Shown here: one piece after another, positions 12,253-51,252 of the stretch
How the letters are laid out: each line of letters opens with the position of its first letter
Numbering within the stretch: the stretch's first letter is position 1
Source: an uncultured Verrucomicrobiae bacterium
GTDB taxonomy: Bacteria; Verrucomicrobiota; Verrucomicrobiia; Chthoniobacterales; UBA10450
NCBI GenBank assembly: GCA_963726745.1
Contig: CAVSDR010000004.1
Span: 128,001-192,000 of the forward strand
Length of the DNA stretch: 64,000 nucleotides
Direction: 5' to 3'
The notes under the pieces: model-generated
Databases searched by the model: none
What the model was told of the DNA's origin: nothing
Seen by the model: only the letters and a program-made list of their open reading frames with translations
Made by a program: the position numbers and the translations under genes

Positions 12253-13293
12253 GTGGCGCGACCAACAGCCGACCAGATGTTCATGCGCGCCGCCTTGCGC
12301 GAAGCCGCCAAAGGCGCCGGTCTAACGAGTCCTAATCCCGCGGTCGGCGCGGTTTTGGTGCACCAGGGAAAGATCGTCGCGCGCGGGCATCATCGCGGCC
12401 GCGGCACGCCCCACGCAGAGATCGCCTGCCTGGAAAAATTCGGGCGCGCGCTGCCCGCCGCGGCCACGCTTTACGTGACGCTCGAACCTTGCTCGACGGT
12501 CGGCCGCACGCCCGCCTGCACCACCGCGCTGCAACGCGCCGGCCTGCGCCGGTTGGTCGTGGGCGCGGTCGACGTCAACCCCGCGCACGCGGGACGCGGG
12601 CTGGAGATTCTGCGACGCGCGGGCGTCGAGGTGGTCGCGGGGGTGCTCGCGGAGGAATGCGCCGCGCTGAACGAAGCCTTCAACAAATGGATCGTCACCC
12701 GACGGCCGTTTGTCATTGCCAAGTGCGGCCTCAGTCTCGACGGCCGGCTCACCCGCCCGCCGGCCGATCCGCGCTGGCTCACGAGCGCGGCGGCGCGCGC
12801 GCAGGCCAACGCTTTTCGCGCGCAAGTAGACAGCATTCTCATCGGCGCGCGCACCCTGCGGGCGGACAATCCCCGCCTGACCGCGCGCGGCCGGCCGGGC
12901 GCGCGCCAGCCGTGGCGCGTGGTCCTGACGCGCTCGGGAAATCTTCCGCGCGCGTCGCATCTCTTCACCGACCAATTTGCCAGCCGCACGCTGGTCTACC
13001 ACGACCAGCCGCTGGCCGCGGTCCTGGACTCGTTAGGCGATCGCGAAATTACCAGCGTCCTCCTGGAAGGCGGCGGCGATATTCTCAGCCAGGCTTTGGA
13101 TGAGCGCCTGCTCGACCGGGTGCACCTCTACTTTGCGCCAGTGCTCGTGGGCGGGCCGGTGGTCGCGTTTGCCGGCCGCGGCGCGGCGGCCACGCTCGAC
13201 GGTGTGCGCCTGCGCGATTTGCACTTCGCGCAGATCGGTGATGATATCTTTCTCAATGCGCGCGCGGATTATTCCGCCACGGGAAACGAATAA
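12253..13293 (+). CDS. ribD: Riboflavin biosynthesis deaminase/reductase
   Basis: TSPNPAVGAV, HAE, TLEPC..GRTPAC, SLDG, LLEGGG. Confidence 0.96.
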   Translation: MARPTADQMFMRAALREAAKGAGLTSPNPAVGAVLVHQGKIVARGHHRGRGTPHAEIACLEKFGRALPAAATLYVTLEPCSTVGRTPACTTALQRAGLRRLVVGAVDVNPAHAGRGLEILRRAGVEVVAGVLAEECAALNEAFNKWIVTRRPFVIAKCGLSLDGRLTRPPADPRWLTSAAARAQANAFRAQVDSILIGARTLRADNPRLTARGRPGARQPWRVVLTRSGNLPRASHLFTDQFASRTLVYHDQPLAAVLDSLGDREITSVLLEGGGDILSQALDERLLDRVHLYFAPVLVGGPVVAFAGRGAAATLDGVRLRDLHFAQIGDDIFLNARADYSATGNE

Positions 13294-16486: not shown

Positions 16487-18304
16487 CTAATTGTCGAGCA
16501 CGCGGGCAGGCGAAAACGCGGAAAGTTGATCGAGCTGTGCCTTCAGGTCAACAACTTGTTTCTGCAGTTGCGTCAGTTCCCCGGCACTGAGCTGCGGGAT
16601 GTGCATCCGGCCTTCCGCGATCTGCAATTGCCGCCGCACCGCGGCGCGTTTCAAGCCGCTCCACCAGTCGCGCGCCACGCCCGCGGCATTCGGCGGCACC
16701 TTCTGCAGGAGCCAGCCGGAGATGAGCTGTTCCTTCCCCGGCGCGACCTGCGTCATGAAAACATTAAGCGAGGCCGGATCGTCCGGGCGCACGTCCGCCG
16801 CGAGGATTTCCGCGAGCAATTCCGCGTCCGGCGTTTGCCCGAGGACCTCGCGCCAGTTCTCCTCCTGGAGGAAAGCGCGCGCCTCCGCATCGCGCAGCGC
16901 CAGCAGGCAAAGCAGCGCGATCTCGTGCCGCGGTGCGGGCGCCGGGAGCATGCGCGCCCGCTCCACCTCCGGGCGGTAGCGCTCGCGCGCCGGACGCGTA
17001 AGCAGCGCCTGGAATTCCCGCGCGGCCACGCCGATGCGCGCGCTCACTTTGCTGGCAATTTCGTCGCGCATGATCGGGTTTTGGATCCGCGCCACGGTGT
17101 CGGCTAATTTCCGCGCGAGCTGCATCTTCGCGCCCAAGGAATCGAGATCGCTCGCGGCTGCTTCCCGTTCGATCCAGTAATCGAAAAAATCGCGCGCCGT
17201 CTGGATGCGCTGCTCGAAGGCCTCGCGGCCCTGCTTGCGCACGATCGAGTCCGGATCCTCGCCCGCGGGCATCTCCGCGATGCGCACGATCAAGTCGTTA
17301 GCCAGCAAGCTCTCGAGCGAGCGCTCGGCCGCCTTTTGCCCGGCGGCATCGGCGTCGAAACACAGGATCACCTCCTGGACAAACCGCTTCAGGATGCGCG
17401 CCTGTTGCTCGGTGAAAGCGGTCCCCTGCGGCGCGACCACGTTAGTGATTCCAGCCTCGAAGAGCGTGATCAAATCGAGCTGCCCTTCGCAGACGATCGC
17501 AGCGCTCGCATCGATGAGCGCGCGCTTCGACTTGTGCAGCCCAAAGAGGACCGAGCCCTTGCGAAAAAGCGGCGTTTCCGGCGAGTTGAGATACTTTGCG
17601 CCTTCGTTCTCTTTCACCAGCACGCGCCCGCTAAAGGCGATCACTTCGCCGGTGTCGTTGCAGATCGGGAACATGATCCGGCCGCGGAAACGATCGTAGA
17701 CTTCAGACTCGTTAGGCCGCTCCTCGTCGCGTGGCTTGACCAGCCCGCTCTGGAGAATCTGCCCGCGGCGATAGCCCGCATCGAGCGCCCAGCGCAGGCA
17801 GGCCTCCCATTCGTTAGGGGCGTAGCCCAGCTGCCAGTTCTTCGCGATCCGCGCATCGATCCCGCGCTGCTTGAGATACTCGCGCGCAGGCGCGGCCCAC
17901 TCGCGCTTAAGCAGGTTTTCCTGGAACCACTCGGCCGCATCTGCATGGAGCGCGAGCAGGGTCCGGCGGATGTCGTGCTGCCGGTCGTCCTCGACACTGA
18001 AGCTGCGCTCCTCGATCACCGGAATGCCGACGCGCGCCGCCAGCTTTTTCACCGCGCTCGGGAAATCGAGATGCTCGTAATCCATCACGAAGCGAAAGAC
18101 GCTCCCGCCTGCACCGCAGCCGAAGCAATGGAACGATTGCCGTTGCGGGCTGACGCTGAAGGAAGGCGACTTCTCCTGGTGAAACGGACAGAGCGCCTTG
18201 AAGCTGGCGCCCGCGCGCTTCAGGGGAAAATACGAGCCGATGACCTCGACGATGTCATTCGCCGCTGCTACCTGCTCGATCGTTTGTGTGGGAATGCTGC
18301 CCAT
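16487..18304 (-). CDS. dnaG: DNA primase
   Basis: CPFHQEKSPSF...CFGC zinc domain, KYLNSPET, CEGQLD, FDADAAG. Confidence 0.98.
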   Translation of the reverse strand: MGSIPTQTIEQVAAANDIVEVIGSYFPLKRAGASFKALCPFHQEKSPSFSVSPQRQSFHCFGCGAGGSVFRFVMDYEHLDFPSAVKKLAARVGIPVIEERSFSVEDDRQHDIRRTLLALHADAAEWFQENLLKREWAAPAREYLKQRGIDARIAKNWQLGYAPNEWEACLRWALDAGYRRGQILQSGLVKPRDEERPNESEVYDRFRGRIMFPICNDTGEVIAFSGRVLVKENEGAKYLNSPETPLFRKGSVLFGLHKSKRALIDASAAIVCEGQLDLITLFEAGITNVVAPQGTAFTEQQARILKRFVQEVILCFDADAAGQKAAERSLESLLANDLIVRIAEMPAGEDPDSIVRKQGREAFEQRIQTARDFFDYWIEREAAASDLDSLGAKMQLARKLADTVARIQNPIMRDEIASKVSARIGVAAREFQALLTRPARERYRPEVERARMLPAPAPRHEIALLCLLALRDAEARAFLQEENWREVLGQTPDAELLAEILAADVRPDDPASLNVFMTQVAPGKEQLISGWLLQKVPPNAAGVARDWWSGLKRAAVRRQLQIAEGRMHIPQLSAGELTQLQKQVVDLKAQLDQLSAFSPARVLDN

Positions 18305-18490: not shown

Positions 18491-20685
18491 TTAGCGCTGC
18501 GAATCGAGTTTCTGGACCGGAGGCGCGGGCGGGCAGTCGCCCTCGGCGTCGCCGTGATCCAAGTGGCGCCGCAACTCCAGGCTGCTGCACTGGAAGACGA
18601 GCGTCTGGGTCCGCTTGTGACAAACCGAGCAGTTCACCGGCGGCGTGGGTGAAGGAGTCGGAGTCGGAGTCGGAGTCGGAGTCGGAGTCGGAGTCGGAGT
18701 CGGAGTCGGAGTCGGAGTCGGAGTCGGAGTCGGAGTCGGACGTTGGCGTCGGCGTTGGCGTTGGCGTTGGCGTTGGCGTTGGCGTTGGCGTTGGCGTTGG
18801 CGTTGGCGTTGGCGTTGGCGTTGGCGTTGGCGTTGGCGTTGGCGTTGGCGTTGGCGTCGGCTGTCCGCTCCACGGAGCCCTTTTCGCAGGCCGCTTCCTG
18901 CGGGCGCGTGACGGCGTTCTGCGAGGTCGTGATCACCGTCCCGCAGTCGTTCGTGCCCCCTGGGATGGCGTTCACCACCGGACTCATCGGGTTGGGTTGA
19001 TGCGTCAGGGTGCTTCCGCCGTTGTTGGCCAGCGGCCCGAGTTGCGGGTCGGTGCCGGTGAAGTCGTTCGCTAGGGCGACGAAGGTGCCGCCCGAAGTGT
19101 TCTCGACGTGATTGAAGTCCTGCGACGTGATCGTGCCGGCAATGTCCGGCCCGGAAGTTCCGGCGGTGTTGTCGGCCACGATGCTGTTCTTCAGGTTCGT
19201 CGTTCCATTGGCGTCCTGGAAAAGGCCGCCGCCGGTGGTGCCCGCGGTGTTGGAAGCGATCGTCGAGAAGTTCGAGGTAAGCGTCGCCGCCGTTCCGCTG
19301 TTGTAAACGCCGGCACCGTTGTTGGCGCCGTTCCCGCTCACGGTGGAGTTCGTCAGGTTCACCGCACCGAGTCCAGTGGAGACGGCGAAGTTCTCCACCC
19401 CGCCGCCCAGACTGGTCGGCGAACTCACCGAGTTCCCGCTGATCGTGGAACGGGTGATGGTGGTCGTCGCGTTAAAGGTGGCCCCGGAGATGTTCACCAC
19501 CCCGCCGCCTTCACCGACGGCGGTATTCCCGCCCACCGTGCTATTAGTGATCGTAGTCGTCGCCGCCGCCGTCGTCGAAGCGAGCGTCCGGATGCCGCCG
19601 TGGAAGTGGCTGGCCGAGTTGCCGGAGACGGTGGAATTGCTGATCGAGACCGTGGCCTGCTGATTGTAAATGGCACCCGCGAAACCCGAGCCGGCGCCTG
19701 CGGTCACGGTGGAGGAATTCCCGGTCACCGTGCTGCCGGTGATTGTCGTTGTGCCGGCGGTCACGTGCACCCCGCCGCTGAAAGTGTTCGTACCCGAACT
19801 GGTGACGGAGTTCCCGGTGATCGCCGAGTCGGTGATATTCAAGGTCCCGATCGACGAGATGCCGCCGCCGCTGACAGACACGGTCGTGCTCGTATTCGAA
19901 CCGGCATTGCCGGAAACCGTCGAATTATTGAGCGCGATCGTGGCCACGCTATTGCCCATGATTCCGGCGCCGGTCGAACTGCCGGCGGCTGTTCCCCCGG
20001 CGGTGTTATTCGAAACCGTGCAGTTGTTCAGCGTGGTGGTCGAGCCGGTCGCGCCGGAAACCGCGATGCCGCCGCCGCTGGTCCCGTCGTCGTTCTCGGT
20101 AATGACACAACGGTTCAGGGTCAGGTTTGCAGCTCCCGCATCCACGCGGATGCCCGCCCCGAAAGTCCCGGCAGCGGTGGTGTAGCGGCCATACCGCACC
20201 GTGAGGTCATTCAAAACGGCGGTCGTCCCTGGCGAAACAAAGCGGACGTGGAAGACGCGCTCGACCGCGACACCGCGGCTGGTGGCCGCCTGGACGATGG
20301 TGGTCGCAGACCCGGCACCGTTAATCGTGATGTCCGAGTTGATGTCTAAATCGCCACTGGCGTTCGCGTTCTCGCCGGCTGCGGCCAGAGTGGTGGTGTA
20401 GGTTCCCGCCGGGAGAGTGATGATGTCAGCGCCAGCCAGGGCATTCGCCTCGGTGATCGCGGCTCGCAGGGTGCAGGTGCCCGTGCTCGTCGCGCACATG
20501 CCGTCGCCCGGGGCGGCATCGTTCGCGTCGTTGGTATCGTTAACCACAAAGGTCGCGGCGTGCGCGCCGGTCAACGCGAGGAGGGAGATTCCCAGGGTGA
20601 CGGCTCCCCGGAAGGTGTGGTGAAGTTTCTTTGGGCTCATGGGTGTTTGTGGTGGGTGGGTTGGGGGCTGCAGGAACGGCCACAT
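18491..20685 (-). CDS. CSLREA/choice-of-anchor-Q-like beta-helix surface protein with Pro-Thr linker and small Cys/His C-terminal domain (frameshifted in this assembly)
   Basis: Signal peptide, CTLRAAITEAN, GGG(I/V) beta-helix repeats, DPQLGPLANNGGSTLTH. A different frame after the repeat gives (PT)n-VNCSVCHKRTQTL...RRHLDHGDAEGDC...stop at 18491. Confidence 0.75.
18655..18860 (-). repeat. Two adjacent hexanucleotide microsatellites, (GGAGTC)n and (GGCGTT)n, encoding a (Pro-Thr)n linker
   Basis: About 14 copies of GGAGTC then about 20 of GGCGTT; the minus strand reads CCG ACT and CCA ACG = PT. Confidence 0.95.
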
Positions 20686-20939
20686 GAGCCGTCAGGGGGG
20701 CGGAGAGTGAATGAATGCGAACGAATTGTCAGCAATAATCTCCAGACAAGGTGAACGTCACCATACCGGCGAGGGCCGCATTCAGGGAAGAAGACGCACC
20801 CGCAGGAACAGGCCAGGACTGCCGCTGGTCGTGGCGGAAATCTGCGCGGGGCCAGCGCTGCTCGCGGTCAAGTCGCTCGCTGCGCCCGTGGCCGACCAAT
20901 GGGGCGTAGCCGGCAGCTCGGGAAATCCAAACCGTTCAC

Positions 20940-21150
20940 ATCAGCCATCCCCACGGCGATCCCCCGTATCGTCGATTTCATAAGCCCCGCCCGACCGAAC
21001 CCGTTGTCTCGCCGTTAAGTCCGCCCAGGTCCTTGTTCTTCGAGCCCGTGCCGCTAAAGCGCACCGGGTGCAGATTCGCGTTCCCCGCATCGAAAGCATA
21101 GCCGACCACCTGGCCAGAGTGATTCATCGCCGTCGCCGCCGCGATCGTCC
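20940..21150 (-). pseudogene. Fragment of an HAF-type extracellular repeat protein
   Basis: Manual translation ATAMNHSGQVVGYAFDAGNANLHPVRFSGTGSKNKDLGGL, then after a frameshift AYEIDDTGIAVGW; no complete ORF. Confidence 0.55.
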
Positions 21151-21600
21151 CACCTCACGTCCCCAGATCCGTCGCCAAGGGATACCTCGCCCGCTCCCGC
21201 CGCCCGTCCCGGAGCGGAGATGTTTTAAGCCAAAACCAACCCACCGACCCAGCGCCGCGTCCGATTCTTTCTTGGTAAGACTTGGGTGATCATGGGCGGA
21301 TGCCCCCGGGAAGTGTCCACCCGCGATAGGCCCGCTTACCAAAGTCGCCGCCGCCCGCGGCCGAGCATTGTCCCGCCCGCCACGCTCAAGGAAAAAATCC
21401 TCGCCTTTGAAACCGGGATTCACCTAATACCCGTTAGTCGGCTGAAGCGCGCCACCTCACCCACGCAGCCAATATACAGGCGGATGAAGATACCTCCACC
21501 CCTCGTCGCTTCGACTGCCCTTATGCTTACCCCTCGACGCCTCTTTCGCCTTCCACTCCTGCCCGTGATAGGTGTAAAAAATTACGCCTTTGAAGACGTA

Positions 21601-21623
21601 GTTACGTCTAATTCTCGTTAGGT
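21601..21623 (+). mobile_element. attI-like integron recombination site
   Basis: GTTACGTCTAATTCTCGTTAGGT: CTAA inner site plus GTTRRRY core just upstream of the first cassette ORF; no attC hairpin upstream. Confidence 0.6.
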
Positions 21624-21635
21624 CTCAACCGCGCC

Positions 21636-22058
21636 GTGGAAGTCTACGTTCACAAAGCTGGTCAGCAGCATGGCCCATTCACGGACGAAGAGGTGATCGC
21701 TTCGCTGCGCAATGGCGCATTCGCGGCTGACGATCTCGGGTGGCGCGAAGGCCAAGGTGACTGGCTTCCTCTTGCGCAGCTCTACCTGGCCGCTTCGCGA
21801 CCGGTGGGCGCAGCGCCTCCACCTGTGCTAACGGTCTCCCGCGCACAGAAGAAGTCGAAGGTTGAGTTCGCGGGATGGGGCGCGGCACTTCAGGCTATCG
21901 GCCTGCTACTTTGCTTCACTATTGTAGGCGCGCTTATGGGTATTCCACTGATGATTATCGGCGGGCGCATGTCACGCAAACTCATCTGCACACACTGTGG
22001 CAATCAAACCACAGCAGAAGCGAAGATTTGTTCGGCTTGTGGCGCACACTTCGCATGA
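21636..22058 (+). CDS. Integron cassette 1: GYF_2 (DUF4339) domain + 2 TM + zinc ribbon
   Basis: GQQHGPF...WREGQGDWLPL; TM hairpin; CTHC...CSAC. Confidence 0.85.
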   Translation: MEVYVHKAGQQHGPFTDEEVIASLRNGAFAADDLGWREGQGDWLPLAQLYLAASRPVGAAPPPVLTVSRAQKKSKVEFAGWGAALQAIGLLLCFTIVGALMGIPLMIIGGRMSRKLICTHCGNQTTAEAKICSACGAHFA

Positions 22059-22071
22059 AAACGCAAAAGAG

Positions 22072-22195
22072 ACCTGACCAGGCGATGCAGCGAACCGCTG
22101 GCCGCTCCGCGTTCCCACTTTCGATGACTTCCACATCCTACCTGCAGCGGCGTGCGCTCTCGCCAGCGGTCGCCTGATCTTGGGTCTCGTTAGGC
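22072..22195 (+). mobile_element. attC site 1
   Basis: R'' ACCTGAC to R' GTTAGGC, 124 bp; L arms ACCGCTGGC/GCCAGCGGT. The segment GAGACCTGAC complements the cassette start GTTAGGTCTC at 9/10 positions. Confidence 0.88.
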
Positions 22196-22205
22196 GGCTA
22201 CGCAC

Positions 22206-22935
22206 GTGAGCTACTTCATTTATCAAGAGAGCGAGACATACGGCCCGTACCCGCTTGAGCAGTTGCGAGCGCTTTGGGCCGAAGGGCGTGTTCAGACTGG
22301 CGCCCTCTTCTGCGAAGAGGGCGCCGAGGAGTGGCGAGATATTGCGGAGCTGCGATCGCGGCTGGAGCCGCAGCCGCGGCTGCCCGCCGCGGTTCGTGCG
22401 TCGCCACCATTACCGGTACAGCAGAAAAGCGCTGCGCCTCGCAAAAACACAGCTCTTGTCGCCGCTGGTGTCGTTGGACTATTCGCTTTCTTCATTATCA
22501 TTGGCGTTGTCTCGCAGAGTACGACACCGACGCCAGTTGTAGGCGGGCGTAGTGCCGCCGCCGGAGTGATGTACCGATGCAGAGTCGGCGCTTCGCAGCG
22601 CCGACTACAACCGGACCGCACAGCTATTGAATCGAATTTCCGACGAGTATCCCGACAGCTCGCAGGCACAGACAGTTCGCGACCTGGCGTCATTCCTTCG
22701 CAACCGGCAAGCGAGTCGCGAAGGCCCGTTCACGGCGGGCGAAGCGGAGCGCCTTCGCGCCGTAATGGATTCATGGGAGAAGATCCGTGCGAATTACCGC
22801 GTCACCACACCAGAGAAGCGTCGTGCCTTGGAAGCGATTTTCGGGCGTGAGACTTTCCAGACGACAGATGTCGGCTTGGAGAGCATCAGCACATCCGCTA
22901 CTAAGCTTCGAGATAGCGTGGACAGAGCGCGATGA
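22206..22935 (+). CDS. Integron cassette 2: GYF_2 domain + TM + helical (TPR-like) domain, frameshifted near 22545-22575
   Basis: ETYGPY...CEEGAEEWRDI; TM; another frame continues DAESALRSADYNRTAQLLNRISDEYPDSSQA to the stop at 22935. Confidence 0.72.
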
Positions 22936-22942
22936 CACCGCC

Positions 22943-23067
22943 GCCTAACCATGCGATGGAGCGAAACGGCGGACCGCTCTGCAATTCACTTTTGAGATGA
23001 CTACTTCTCTTCCACTTCGAGCGGCGCGAGCCCTCGCCAGCGGTCGCTCATCTTGTTCTCGTTAGGT
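22943..23067 (+). mobile_element. attC site 2
   Basis: R'' GCCTAAC to R' GTTAGGT, 125 bp, homologous to attC1. GCCGCCTAAC is the exact complement of the cassette start GTTAGGCGGC. Confidence 0.9.
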
Positions 23068-23260
23068 GCTGAGACGTCGCGATGAGATTGCTGGCTAATT
23101 TCTCCGAACGGCCGTCGCGCGGCGCGGTGGCCCGCCGGGCGGACCGCCCAGCCTCCGGGGTCAGAGCTTGAATCTCGGCAGTTTTGGCGCTCTTCGGGCA
23201 CTGGCGGCGCCCCCTTTTTTTCTTGCCTAACGGGCGCTGCCTTTTCAAACATCGCGGCCT

Positions 23261-23950
23261 ATGGACGACTCTCAAAGGAACACGCTGGCGATGTTTAAGA
23301 CGGTGCGGACTTACCTGGGCGAGCATCAGTCGGTTTGGCAGGGGGTGCCGGCGATTGCGACGGTGAAGTCGGCCTTTTCGACGGTGGTGGACGGGATCGA
23401 TGCGGCGGTCGAGCGGCAGGAACAGCCTTCGACCGGAATCACCCAGGAGAAGCAGGATCGGCGCGATGTCCTGGAGGGTTTGATCCTTTCCCTGGGTCAC
23501 ACGGTGGCGGCTTATGCGGAGATGAGCGGGAACCACGCGATGGCCGCGGAGGTGGATTACACCCCGTCGCGGCTGGATACGATGAATGAGGAGCGGCTGG
23601 ACGATGCAGCCACGCGGGTGATTGACCATGCCAGTGCCCATATCGCCGACTTAACTGCGCAATATAACCTAACGAGTGCAATGGTGACGGCGCTGACGGC
23701 GGCGCGCGATGCCTTCAAGGCGGACCAGCCGAAACCGCAGGCGAAGATTTCGGCCAAGGCCGGGGAGACGGCCTCGCTCCCGGAGAAGTTCCGGCAGGCG
23801 CGCACCCTCCTGCGCCGGCAGCTCGACAAGCTGATGATGGCTTTCCGCGCGACCAACCCGGAGTTCTATGCCGGCTACCTGAGCGCGCGGGTGGTGATCG
23901 ACCGGCGCGGGCCGGGAAAGCCGGCTCAACCCACGCCACCGACGCCCTAA
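23261..23950 (+). CDS. Uncharacterised alpha-helical protein
   Basis: 229 aa, amphipathic helices, C-terminal LDKLM..F....PEFYAGYLSARVVID motif. Confidence 0.8.
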   Translation: MDDSQRNTLAMFKTVRTYLGEHQSVWQGVPAIATVKSAFSTVVDGIDAAVERQEQPSTGITQEKQDRRDVLEGLILSLGHTVAAYAEMSGNHAMAAEVDYTPSRLDTMNEERLDDAATRVIDHASAHIADLTAQYNLTSAMVTALTAARDAFKADQPKPQAKISAKAGETASLPEKFRQARTLLRRQLDKLMMAFRATNPEFYAGYLSARVVIDRRGPGKPAQPTPPTP

Positions 23951-24030
23951 GGGCGCAAATCGCTGGGAGGGAGGCGTTTTCGGATGCTCGCGAAAGGGAT
24001 CGACCAGAGCGGGAGCCGATCTCGGCGGAG

Positions 24031-24387
24031 CCAGACAGCCAAATGGAGGCGCCAAGGTGCAGATCATCTGGCCCAAACGGCAACTCATCTTCGCCAAACG
24101 GCAACTCATCTTCGCCAAACGGCAATTCATCTTCGCCAAACGGCAATTCATCTTCGCCAGACGGCAATTCATCTTCGCCAAACGGCAATTCATCTTCGCC
24201 AGACGGCAACTCATCTTCGCCAGACGGCAACTCCTCTGCGCCAAAGTGCAGGCTATTTTCCCCAGACGGCATCTCGCATGGCCCGGACGGCAACTCCTTT
24301 TCCCCGGATGGCAACTCCCCGGGCCCGGACGGCAGCTCGTGTGGGCCTGAGCGCCTCTCCCCTTCTCCAGACGCCCAGCCGAACCTT
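24031..24387. repeat. Tandem array of 17 x 21-bp units (consensus CCARACGGCAAYTCATCTTCG)
   Basis: Exact 21-bp phase from 24031 to 24387; near-identical core units at 24073-24240, degenerate flanking units. Confidence 0.93.
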
Positions 24388-24405
24388 GCGGGAGGACGCC
24401 GCGTG

Positions 24406-24732
24406 ATGGAAACGGACGAGTCCCGACCGACGGCGGGCGCCGGCGAAGGGCTGGACCTCGACCGGGTGCTGGCCGCGATCGGGGATGGATCGCGCTGGCG
24501 CATCCTGGTGGCGCTGGCGGAGCGGGACAATGTGCTGGTAAACGAGCTGGCGGAGCTGCTGGGCCGGAATGCGAGCACGGTTTCGAAGCACCTGCGTTTC
24601 CTGCGCGAGGCCGGCCTGGTGGAAGCGGGCCGGGGGCGGCTCTACCGGATCGCGCCGCAGCTCGCACTCGACCGGGAGAAGGGCGAGCTGGACCTCGGCT
24701 TTGCCGTGCTGCGGTTCCATCCTGCTGGCTAA
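24406..24732 (+). CDS. ArsR/SmtB-type winged-helix regulator
   Basis: LAAIGDGSRWRILVAL...VNELAELLG...TVSKHLRFLREAGLV; may start at 24043 and include (PNGNSSS)n. Confidence 0.85.
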   Translation: METDESRPTAGAGEGLDLDRVLAAIGDGSRWRILVALAERDNVLVNELAELLGRNASTVSKHLRFLREAGLVEAGRGRLYRIAPQLALDREKGELDLGFAVLRFHPAG

Positions 24733-27952: not shown

Positions 27953-28153
27953 TCAGCCGCCGGCGACGACGCGGATGAACTCGATCTGGTCGTTCTCGGC
28001 TAACGAGTGCTCGGCCCACTCGCGTTGATGGAGCGCGGTGCCGTTGTGCTCGATCAGGATGCTGTTCGGATGCAGGCCGAACTGGTCGGCTAATTCCGCC
28101 ACGGTGCGCGCGCCGCGGGTCTCGGCGCGTTCGCCATTCACGCGCACGGTCAT
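27953..28153 (-). CDS. thiS: Sulfur carrier protein ThiS
   Basis: MTVRVNGE...EHNG...IEFIRVVAGG (C-terminal GG). Confidence 0.92.
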   Translation of the reverse strand: MTVRVNGERAETRGARTVAELADQFGLHPNSILIEHNGTALHQREWAEHSLAENDQIEFIRVVAGG

Positions 28154-48907: not shown

Positions 48908-51252
48908 AATTTTCCGTCAATTGGCTGCGTGAATTCGTCGACCTCCCCGCGAGCACCGAGGAATTAGCCGACATCCTCACCTTCGCCGGCATCGAGATCG
49001 AAGGGATCGAGCCGCGCGGCTTGAACCTCGAGCATGTCGTCATCGGCCAGATCAATTCCTTCGCGCAACATCCGAACGCCGACCGCCTGAGCGTCTGCGA
49101 CGTGAACGACGGCACGAACGAGCATCGGCAGATCGTTTGCGGTGCGAAGAATTTCAAAGCTGGCGACAAAGTCCCGGTGGCCCTCCCCGGCGCCGCCCTG
49201 CCCAACGGTCTCAAGATCAAAGTCAGCAAGCTCCGCGGCGTGGAATCGCAGGGAATGCTTTGCAGCCCGAGCGAGCTCAAGGTTTCCGAGGATGGCGACG
49301 GTTTGCTCATCCTCTCACCCGATGCCCCGGTCGGCGCGCCCATTGGCGATCTCTTCCCGCCGGACACGATTCTAGACGTCGAGATCACGCCGAATCGGAG
49401 CGATCTCCTGAGCTACCTCGGCCTGGCCCGCGAGATCGCCGCGCTCACCGGCAAGACCGCGCGGCTCCCGCAAATCGCCGAGCCGGCCACGGTGCGAAAC
49501 GAGAGCGTGAAGCTAAGCGCGCCCGAGGCCTGCCCGTTTTATTCCGCGCGTCGGATTGCCCACGTCCGGGTCGGCCCCAGCCCCGCCTGGCTCCGAGCGA
49601 AACTCGAGTCTGCCGGGCTGCGCCCGATCAACAACATCGTCGACGTGACCAATTTCGTGATGCTCGAGCTAGGCCAACCGCTCCACGCCTTCGATGCCGA
49701 TAAATTAGACGGCGGGATCAACGTCCGCCTCGCGGCCGAGGGCGAGAAATTCCTCGCGCTCGACGGGAAAACTTACTCGTTAGGCCCGGACAATTTGCTG
49801 ATTGCCGACCACTCGCGCGCGGTCGCGATTGGCGGCGTCATGGGCGGCGAAGACAGCGGCGTCACCGAGTCGACGGCGAACGTTCTCCTGGAGAGCGCCT
49901 GGTTTCTCCCATCGAGTATCCGCCGCACCGCCCGCACTCTCGCCTTGCCGAGCGATGCCAGTTACCGCTTCGAGCGCGGCGTCGATCCCGCAATGACCTT
50001 GCGCGCCTCCGCGCGCGCCGCGCAATTAATCAGCGAGCTGGCCGGCGGTGAACCGGCGGCTGAGACGGCGATTGCCGGCGAAATTCCCGCTCCGCCCGCA
50101 GACGTGACCTTTCGCAACGCCCGCAGCAATCAGCTTCTCGGCATCTCCCTGTCCGAAAGCGCGTCGGCCAAAATTCTCGAAGGCTTTGGCCTCACCAAAG
50201 TGTCGGCTAACGAGGAATCGAGCACCTGGAAAATCCCGAGCCATCGCCCCGACTTGAAGCGCGAGGCCGACCTGATTGAGGAAGTCGTGCGCGCCCACGG
50301 GATCGACAAAATCCCGAGCCGCAACCGGAGCGTCTTCACCGCGATCAGCGCGGCCGATCGCAGCTTCGACTTCCAGGCGCGCGTCCGCCAGCGCCTAAGC
50401 GCGCGCGGTTTTTCCGAGGCACGCACCTCAGCCTTGATCGCGCGCGGCGCGGAGCATTTCGCCGAGGGGGCGGTGGCCCTGCGCAATCCGCTGAGCGAAG
50501 ACCATGTCGCCCTGCGGCCGAGCTTGCTGCCTGGCCTCTTGCAGGTGCTCGAGCGCAACCTGCGCGCGGGGGCGTCGAGCGTCCGCCTCTTCGAGCTTGG
50601 ACGCGTCTTTCAACCGCCGCAGGCGGAGGAAGCGCGGCATCTCGCGCTCCTTTGCGCGGGCGAACTGCAAGGCGCGCCTCATTGGCGGGGCGGCGAAAAG
50701 CGGCGGCTTGACCTCTTCGACTTGAAGGGCGCGCTCGACTCGTTAGGCAGCGAGCTCAGTTTCCGTCGTGCGGAAAAGCCTGGCCTCGCCCTGGCCGCAG
50801 AAATCCTCCAAGGCGAGCGCGTGCTCGGATTTGCCGGCCAGTTGAGCAACGCGGTCGCGACCAGGCTGGGCGCGAGCGCTCCGGTGTTTCTCCTGGAGGT
50901 CGAATTCTCTTCCCTGAACGCCGCCACGGCGGAGACGACCAAGTTCCAAGAGCTGGAGAAGTTCCCTGCGATCACGCGCGACATCGCCCTGATCGTGCCC
51001 GAAAACGTCGCCCATCGCGAGATCACGCAGACCATCCGGTCGACTAACGAGCCGTTGCTCGCGCAGGTGGAGCTGTTCGATTTGTTTGCCGGGAAAGCAG
51101 GCGCAAGTATCGGTGCCGGAAGAAAATCCGTGGCATATACGTTGACATACCGGGACAGAAACCGGACACTCACGAGCGACGAAGTTGCCGTGGTGCACGC
51201 GCGAATTCGCGAGCGGTTGCGGAGCGAGCTCGGGGCGGAATTGCGGGAATGA
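48904..51252 (+). CDS. pheT: Phenylalanine-tRNA ligase beta subunit
   Basis: MKFSVNWLREF, HPNADRL, ITPNRSD, RFERGVD, FDX-ACB tail. Confidence 0.98.
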   Translation: MKFSVNWLREFVDLPASTEELADILTFAGIEIEGIEPRGLNLEHVVIGQINSFAQHPNADRLSVCDVNDGTNEHRQIVCGAKNFKAGDKVPVALPGAALPNGLKIKVSKLRGVESQGMLCSPSELKVSEDGDGLLILSPDAPVGAPIGDLFPPDTILDVEITPNRSDLLSYLGLAREIAALTGKTARLPQIAEPATVRNESVKLSAPEACPFYSARRIAHVRVGPSPAWLRAKLESAGLRPINNIVDVTNFVMLELGQPLHAFDADKLDGGINVRLAAEGEKFLALDGKTYSLGPDNLLIADHSRAVAIGGVMGGEDSGVTESTANVLLESAWFLPSSIRRTARTLALPSDASYRFERGVDPAMTLRASARAAQLISELAGGEPAAETAIAGEIPAPPADVTFRNARSNQLLGISLSESASAKILEGFGLTKVSANEESSTWKIPSHRPDLKREADLIEEVVRAHGIDKIPSRNRSVFTAISAADRSFDFQARVRQRLSARGFSEARTSALIARGAEHFAEGAVALRNPLSEDHVALRPSLLPGLLQVLERNLRAGASSVRLFELGRVFQPPQAEEARHLALLCAGELQGAPHWRGGEKRRLDLFDLKGALDSLGSELSFRRAEKPGLALAAEILQGERVLGFAGQLSNAVATRLGASAPVFLLEVEFSSLNAATAETTKFQELEKFPAITRDIALIVPENVAHREITQTIRSTNEPLLAQVELFDLFAGKAGASIGAGRKSVAYTLTYRDRNRTLTSDEVAVVHARIRERLRSELGAELRE

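Follow-up and report, generated by a model that had tools for sequence, protein, structure and literature searches.

The cassette array in the window, by which we mean the whole stretch of 64,000 nucleotides that was analysed, is the remnant of an integron that has no integrase, and its crossover sequence is the integron's own. The word M1, which repeats this sequence throughout the genome, is a separate signal restricted to the host family, and in that family the cassettes that stand free of an integrase mostly lie behind an attI of their own. We put the probability of this joint reading at roughly 0.85. It includes that M1 has been written into ordinary genes by substitution and that the crossover is common to relatives with and without M1, both of which were shown by comparison with these relatives. 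The host family is what we take to be UBA10450 of GTDB, the family of Ca. Udaeobacter.

The array lies on the plus strand between a beta-helix gene on its left (18634-20640, minus strand) and a hypothetical gene without a Pfam match on its right (23261-23950), and it consists of a leader, cassette 1, attC1, cassette 2, attC2, and the start of a third cassette. At its head is a solo attI (21565-21623, plus strand) with a distal box at 21565-21574, an inverted L box at 21605-21612, a spacer, and the crossover G|TT at 21617/21618; the octamer occupies 21614-21621 and no intI is beside it. A decayed second attI copy (21390-21440, plus strand), which matches the attI profile in nhmmer with an E-value of 0.009 and scores 18.2 on the attI matrix, has its crossover G at 21433, lies 184 bases upstream of the solo attI, and has no cassette behind it. 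The gene of cassette 1 (21636-22058, plus strand) codes for 140 amino acids with a GYF_2 domain and a zinc ribbon and is followed by attC1 (22071-22195, plus strand; crossover 22189/22190, octamer 22186-22193), which takes part in the covariation of its family and has an E-value of 6.5e-34 with a covariance model that was built from these same sites. The gene of cassette 2 (22206-22935, plus strand), also with a GYF_2 domain, is read in two overlapping frames, 22206-22850 and 22627-22935, and is probably frameshifted. It is followed by attC2 (22942-23067, plus strand; crossover 23061/23062, octamer 23058-23065) and by the start of the third cassette without its attC (23062-23160, plus strand), which bears a copy of another word, M2, on the minus strand at 23084-23100 and recurs in the array on contig C6 as a whole short cassette. 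Hypothetical genes adjoin three cassette loci of this genome, at 23261-23950 in the window, at L007:2530-3048, and at L006:2329-3402, and the first two look alike by eye. The beta-helix gene has a long low-complexity tail at 18634-19000 with its frame apparently shifted relative to a Pro-Thr repeat, and at 24070-24260 tandem 21-base repeats that encode PNGNSSS-like units lie upstream of a gene which is presumably ArsR-like.

The initial annotation had described three integron crossovers, at 21614, 22186, and 23058, as identical to an octamer dispersed over the chromosome. The identity is confirmed: all three read CTCGTTAGG, in the form CTCG|TTAGG. That they are integron crossovers also stands, by the pairing of their cores, with the correction that the one at 21614 belongs to an attI and not to an attC. 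The inverse core of attC2, GCCTAAC at 22943, pairs exactly with GTTAGGC at 22189, and that of attC1, which is mutated to ACCTGAC, pairs with GTTAGGT at 21617 with one mismatch. Because of this internal evidence we regard the crossovers as real. The sites have the arrangement expected of attC, with the inverse core (RYYYAAC) on the 5' side and the core (GTTRRRY) on the 3' side, matched to the cassette's own start. A hairpin with an extra-helical base is conserved over 17 attC sites of this genome, in which 96% of the cells are paired and 11 pairs have changed on both sides, and this covariation was matched by 0 of 500 shuffles, the sequences being related and the structure having been derived from the same 17 sites. 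When folded alone the two attC of the window were no better than shuffles (z of -1.1 and 0.1), and an Rfam scan of 20500-24500 gave nothing relevant.

The 55-nucleotide leader that ends at 21617 also heads the arrays at C6:745356-745270 and C3:632263-632391, which makes three arrays, and in relatives it is found directly behind the 3' end of intact or long intI genes. Therefore, the first crossover site is an attI. Like other attI it stands at the array head, has an L and an R box that are inverted about a short spacer, and adjoins intI in complete integrons. A strict pattern of this leader is present in 15 of 151 host-family genomes. Over GTDB it was found at 31 loci, all titled Chthoniobacterales, Spartobacteria, or other Verrucomicrobia; five of these are directly behind a long intI match, in the direction of the cassettes, two are behind remnants, and 24 have no trace of intI in the 1.0-1.5 kb examined. 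Integrases that point in the same direction as their cassettes are already known, as is stated in one part of PMC4889954. The host family also has ordinary divergent integrons, so that both intI orientations occur within one family, and intI is present in 98 of 150 host-family genomes. The genome studied here (3.41 Mb, 94.7% complete) has 23 attC matches in five clusters. No intact integrase was found in it, that is, no match above the TIGR02249 cut-off, and its integrase-type genes are two of the Xer type, besides which another contig carries a short fragment of intI. The array in the window, which no intI adjoins, is not a complete integron.

In three relatives up to about ten attI-headed mini-arrays per genome were seen at unrelated intergenic places (L141-L151 in G326; L161-L179 in G275 and G137), with several attI types whose distal box is about 29 or 51 bases upstream. 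At another locus (L029, G269:C2:1794283-1797317) two copies of an attI, together with about 130 bases upstream that they have in common, are 3 kb apart; the second copy follows an attC within the array and resembles an attI-bearing cassette. Foreign sequence interrupts intI near its C-terminal TTMIYTHV motif at three loci (L079 in G063, L089 in G161, and L099 in G113). One soil sequencing run had a small share, and its contigs cover mainly att repeats of other organisms; no RNA sequencing runs were among the matches listed.

The initial annotation had offered the dispersed octamers as secondary integrase targets that would explain cassettes at sites with no integrase. The starts of such clusters were examined at 40 loci from six host-family genomes, which hold 43 attC clusters; seven clusters known to lie at intI/attI were left out and G014 was represented by only two clusters. 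Heads were scored with a matrix trained on intI-adjacent attI at a threshold of 12, a score that 3.5% of 400 random stretches reach. There were 31 clusters with a head scoring 12 or more, and since one of these heads is an attC remnant, 30 of the 43 start at an attI, two of them beside intI and 28 with no intI nearby. Of the 12 remaining clusters, one was judged by eye to have an attI whose core is mutated, two follow attC remnants, five have no clear head, three are cut off by a stretch resembling an insertion sequence, with intI beyond it in two cases, and one, L159, starts at the 9-mer TCGTTAGGC of M1, which can equally be read as a decayed attC arm. This last is the sole ambiguous case of a start at the bare word, and the expectation that isolated cassettes insert at the motif is thus not borne out. 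Of 42 solo attI, only 3 have an M1 copy in the 388 bases before them. The part of the proposal that stands is that 28 M1 copies in the genome mimic the full attI simple site; 25 of these are in genes, and no attC was found behind any of the 28 in the genome. Nor do the clusters have the appearance of attG-type insertion, at chromosomal GWT sites without an attI, because they start mostly at an attI. Insertion at attG is a known route that needs only GWT, according to the relevant part of bioRxiv 2022.09.11.507474, and therefore insertion targets would not be limiting. A comparison with empty sites at 18 loci met intergenic homology that was lost at 74% identity. Cassettes in clusters without an integrase can be served in trans (described in a section of PMC9668308) and attI pieces can move as cassettes (described in a section of PMC12901181), and in many integrase-less clusters the solo attI may be live landing sites and not relics. 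Unpublished genomes enter the tallies only (G168 with one attC, G314 with one of the 42 solo attI, and G300), and no conclusion is based on them.

The octamer is enriched genome-wide, as had been claimed for it. The window has 27 copies, 24 of them dispersed outside the array, against a mean of 0.82 in 100 shuffles (largest 4), and the genome has 1,293 where an order-3 Markov model predicts about 60. The claim that dispersed copies extend to GTTRRRY also holds, for 18 of 27 copies in the window and 911 of 1,293 in the genome. The examples at 13032 and 50742 do read GTTAGGC; they belong to M1 copies at 13029-13038 and 50739-50748 (both on the plus strand and within coding genes), the first of which is read as Ser-Leu-Gly. 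As a motif the octamer has to be redefined, for it is only a slice of the longer word M1, approximately ANNAC-TCGTTAGGC-RR, and the top-ranked 8-mer of the genome is TCGTTAGG. By our own gene calls, 1,046 of the 1,293 octamers (81%) are in predicted genes, in tolerated frames, and M1 is read there mostly as Ser-Leu-Gly, Pro-Asn-Glu, or Leu-Thr-Ser. TTA is a rare codon here and 695 of 2,903 TTA codons are preceded by TCG; the tripeptides SLG (763 against 466 expected) and PNE (253 against 97 expected) are the top enriched non-repeat tripeptides of the genome. The octamer provides the TAG stop codon in about 60-70 predicted genes. M1 has no strand bias (499 and 466 copies by local GC skew, 613 and 680 overall), and its density is 8 per 100 kb in atypical genes against 33-40 in typical ones, where the third-position GC class is only a proxy for recent acquisition. 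M1 copies repel each other below 200 nt, to 0.25-0.42 of expected, while 40 control words were never under 0.68, and inverted pairs are nearly absent, with 1-4 within 60 nt among about 1,300 copies. In 229 kb aligned with a congener at 74% identity, 25 of the congener's 128 copies are conserved; at 76 others the sequence here carries substitutions, and the remaining 27 fall in gapped columns. Gains and losses of M1 occur at aligned coding positions.

Enrichment of M1 is confined to the host family: per genome, TCGTTAGGC occurs 13-2,481 times in 53 family members, 1-40 times in 27 genomes from elsewhere in the order, and 0-18 times in 219 genomes drawn from the phylum outside the family, and a census of the octamer over 200 genomes of the order gave the same family-limited picture. 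A de novo search of 120-140 kb in each of five non-family genomes gave no strong word. In one genome outside the family, G149, a signal of GTTAAACA forms 13-15 blocks in 120 kb, many of them within one region. A dif-like site of the genome studied here, at G000:C7:77250-77290, lies in a low-GC, word-poor part of C7; the idea that dif arms are M1 was rejected, as the arms of this site read TTATG. No paper on M1 was found in the open-access literature, where motif tables in supplements could hold one.

If the integrons of this lineage had co-opted a host factor that recognises the octamer, which was the other mechanism put forward in the initial annotation, then attC ends should carry the octamer only in enriched genomes. 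This is largely contradicted. Within the host family 81 of 114 attC (117 matches less three short ones that were dropped) end in CTCGTTAG, and in G014, where the 9-mer occurs only 60 times, 5 of 6 attC are octamer-ended. In G149 (family f8), which has no M1 enrichment, the octamer is at 5 of 8 attC and at the attI as well; on whether this integron came from the host family the IntI tree (26 of 29 proteins, three short ones being dropped) is poorly resolved. In families f6 and f5, where M1 is unenriched, 12 of 22 and 9 of 14 attC respectively terminate in the 9-mer; in f16 the count is 0 of 31. Among attI that were read by eye, 15 of 17 adjacent to intI end in the octamer and none of six from other families does. 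Since TCGTTAGGC is enriched only in the host family and yet ends attC in f5 and f6, the cut site looks older than the word. The two also differ in detail, in that position -5 of octamer-ended attC is T in 96 of 97 and A in none, whereas M1 has A there in 44-64%, and the att sites of the window score only at the 14th-53rd percentile among M1 copies, which argues that a reader of M1 was not optimised on att DNA. Neither the presence of intI predicts M1 (13/16 against 28/37) nor do att ends change in relatives that lack M1 or have other words. The att sequence is wider-spread than M1 and was not shaped by it. In favour of both mechanisms of the initial annotation are the exact match at attI and attC, the 28 look-alikes of the attI simple site, L159, which may start at M1, the known attG route, and a higher share of octamer ends at attC in three word-rich genomes (42 of 49) than in three word-poor ones (39 of 65), for which the p of 0.003 is descriptive because kin are not independent and the covariance model was built from this genome. 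Against them are the same ends in unenriched genomes, att sites that are not polished towards M1, the 30 of 43 clusters that start at an attI, the rarity of M1 upstream of solo attI, the look-alikes without attC, the 81% of copies in genes, where insertion would harm, and the abundance of GWT targets. Largely, then, unenriched genomes have the same attC ends and insertion has no association with the motif, the outcome which the initial annotation itself had set against its proposal, and we consider it very improbable that either mechanism operates. As both fail the tests that were run, the likelier direction is the reverse, from the integron site to the word.

The match between word and crossover may also have arisen by chance, M1 being an uptake-like or other genome signal and one of several words. 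What speaks for this is that a third word, M3, is as strong as M1 and has no significant att match, that att sites and M1 differ at -5 with neither polished towards the other, and that the presence of intI does not track M1. Weighing against it, the match is exact over 8-9 bases and in register with the cleavage point, for which the rough chance is about 1 in 600 to 1 in 2,000 (0.0005-0.0016); only 0-1 of 300 column-permuted matrices score as well as M1 on att sites; attI and attC of the CTC form hardly occur beyond the family to which M1 is restricted; and M2 leans towards the attI boxes. We therefore hold a chance match to be rather unlikely. So exact a match would be most readily accounted for by a reader of M1 that acquired its target from the right half-site of att.

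The other two words bear on what kind of signal M1 is. M2, RAAWTAGMC-AG/GA-CRMNWTS with the core AAWTAGCCRRC, is about 19 bases long with its flanks, AG and GA alternating at two neighbouring positions. It has 622 copies in this genome, ten of them in the window (for example at 28085-28095 on the minus strand, which has the core, and at 17099, 48962, and 58570); a congener has 51 of them and the 78 remaining genomes 2-47 each. M2 is nearly private to this genome. M1 itself has 2,053-2,435 copies in five congeners, 160 in a sixth, and 1,312 here, so it looks thinned where M2 rose. M3, AAGATCGACAW (CAAGATCGACAW), was found in G014 and contains GATC; its carriers include G029, G242, G042, and G014, and it has a density of at least 150 per Mb in 14 of the 53 host-family genomes, with up to 4,514 copies, and in 1-27 copies outside the family. 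M1, M2, and M3 have no clear common core, two words co-exist in some genomes (M3 and M1 in two), and att ends follow neither M2 nor M3. M1 and M2 each repel their own kind and not each other, which suggests separate readers. Words that are patchy, that turn over fast, and that co-exist, such as M2 with 622 copies here against 2-51 in 79 others and M3, would fit the coming and going of modification genes, and the GATC in M3 and the lack of terminator pairs of M1 point the same way. HIP1-like and Vsr-like biases are models for such an origin by sequence-directed methylation or repair bias in place of uptake. The words are, however, non-palindromic, 11-19 bases long, and soft in their flanks, and plain mutation bias does not predict that copies of the same word repel below 200 nt while M1 and M2 do not, and we regard this origin as decidedly unlikely.

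A reader that is IntI, or a protein with its DNA-binding fold, would keep the words as half-sites for an integrase-linked role in recombination or repair. M1 is indeed the R half-site, M2 scores best on the attI L and distal boxes, and at +6 to +9 both words have C-R-R-M, M1 weakly and M2 strongly, like the CRGM of IntI1 attG hotspots that is reported in part of bioRxiv 2022.09.11.507474. But the likeness of M2 to attI boxes is weak (1 of 300 permutations), with M2-matrix scores of 4-11 for the boxes where genuine M2 sites have a median of 18, and that of M3 to att boxes is not better than with permuted matrices. The stronger version, in which all words are IntI half-sites, was rejected, M3 being unsupported and M2 weak. 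Moreover, this genome has M1 and M2 with only a short fragment of intI, many genomes have intI without M1, and the dif-like site does not have M1 arms. A stand-alone IntI DNA-binding domain was not found, the sole match above cut-off to the IntI-type N-terminal domain being in one of the two Xer-type genes. An IntI-type reader is therefore improbable.

We tentatively favour an order of events, at somewhat less than even odds, in which the integron site came first and an uptake-like word, M1, later took its target from the att site. In an ancestor of the host family, a sequence-specific step of transformation would have come to prefer the right half-site of attI and attC, which would have been the commonest repeat in the family's DNA. 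Such a preference would favour the import of cassette-bearing DNA, from which the integrase could capture cassettes. In Vibrio natural transformation supplies cassettes to IntI, as set out in a section of PMC12614218, and since this route is documented a bias for att-bearing DNA could pay at once. Biased uptake and homologous recombination would then, incidentally, have carried the preferred sequence into the whole core genome. Later lineages would have gained M2 and M3, which other specificities recognise, without a corresponding change in the att sites, since these are constrained by the integrase. The uptake-like traits of M1 and the presence of comEC and dprA, which this genome has along with pilin-like genes, speak for the uptake reading. 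Against it are the near absence of inverted terminator pairs, the commonness of comEC and dprA (10-11 of 14 control genomes), and a ComEA-like gene that here lacks its HhH end. This gene, a secreted fusion of SNase and HhH that is whole in congeners (L223-L225), ends here in its nuclease part before the HhH (G000:C4:17230-17904), with an HhH remnant at C2:230175-230279. The fusion is present in 15 of 16 word-rich and 17 of 37 other host-family genomes and occurs outside the family too; it is a weak candidate for the reader of M1, only a lead. In addition, since M3 has no significant likeness to att and M2 a weak one, words can arise without an att template and a causal link is less needed, and the sideways movement of cassettes blurs the order of events. 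The modest ranking of the window's att sites among M1 copies and the lack of a clear core common to the three words, two of which co-exist in some genomes, count against it as well. The uptake reading is based on one origin in one family. Its fullest form seems doubtful to us, namely, that this is a third independent origin of uptake-type self tagging, in a family of Verrucomicrobia common in soil, where the integron crossover was what the receptor first recognised, readers were swapped or added several times (M2, M3), and 55-base attI landing pads spread and are served in trans.

Uptake-type words are known from two proteobacterial families, and a passage of PMC2397512 regards the question of how they begin as still open. 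The host family offers three words at different stages, one of them rising in a single species while an older one thins out, and M1, the oldest, has a visible candidate template, which makes the origin of uptake words testable. If the reading as a third origin is true, DNA uptake would be coupled to cassette capture, and the case would show how a bias in uptake can be of advantage while its word is still rare.

Among known systems M1 behaves most like a DNA-uptake sequence, a class for which it is a candidate by its traits alone and in which we do not file it. It resembles the DUS of Neisseriaceae and the USS of Pasteurellaceae (whose traits are given in parts of PMC2817400 and PMC2397512) in having more than 1,000 copies, a non-palindromic core of 9-10 bases with soft flanks, and copies on both strands without replication-strand bias, mostly in genes with a bias of frame and enriched tripeptides, scarce in atypical genes, and restricted to a family with lineage variants. 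Unlike them, it is in another phylum, has another sequence, and, as the main word, is an integron crossover. About half of DUS and USS lie in terminators, according to a part of bioRxiv 2025.10.24.684340, whereas M1 has almost no inverted terminator pairs, and the dialects of Neisseria DUS share a core (stated in a part of PMC3630211) whereas the three words here, two of which co-exist in some genomes, have no clear shared core. With HIP1 of cyanobacteria and with Chi and KOPS, the words have in common that they are short and highly iterated in coding DNA. HIP1 is palindromic and contains a methylase site, and Chi and KOPS are strongly skewed to one replication strand; in contrast, M1 and M2 are non-palindromic and M1 is not skewed. 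M1 shares the G|TT core with attG and weakly fits CRGM at +6 to +9, but attG has no more than GWT as its consensus, the part of its source that deals with it does not speak of enrichment, and cassettes here start at an attI. As in the Delta-attI cassettes of class 1 and 2 integrons, where pieces of attI can bound cassettes and travel with them, an attI is inside an array behind an attC in one relative, but those cassettes are inside mobile arrays, while here whole attI stand alone in the chromosome. Finally, the array is like a CALIN or SALIN, as defined in parts of PMC4889954 and bioRxiv 2022.09.11.507474, in being bounded by attC without intI nearby, and differs in that the arrays here retain an attI that can be recognised; a single genome often has many of these, at places unrelated to one another. 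IntegronFinder, as its source in part describes it, seeks only attI of classes 1-3, so the solo attI found here would be missed. The integron part is a CALIN with a solo attI, which is a new variant.
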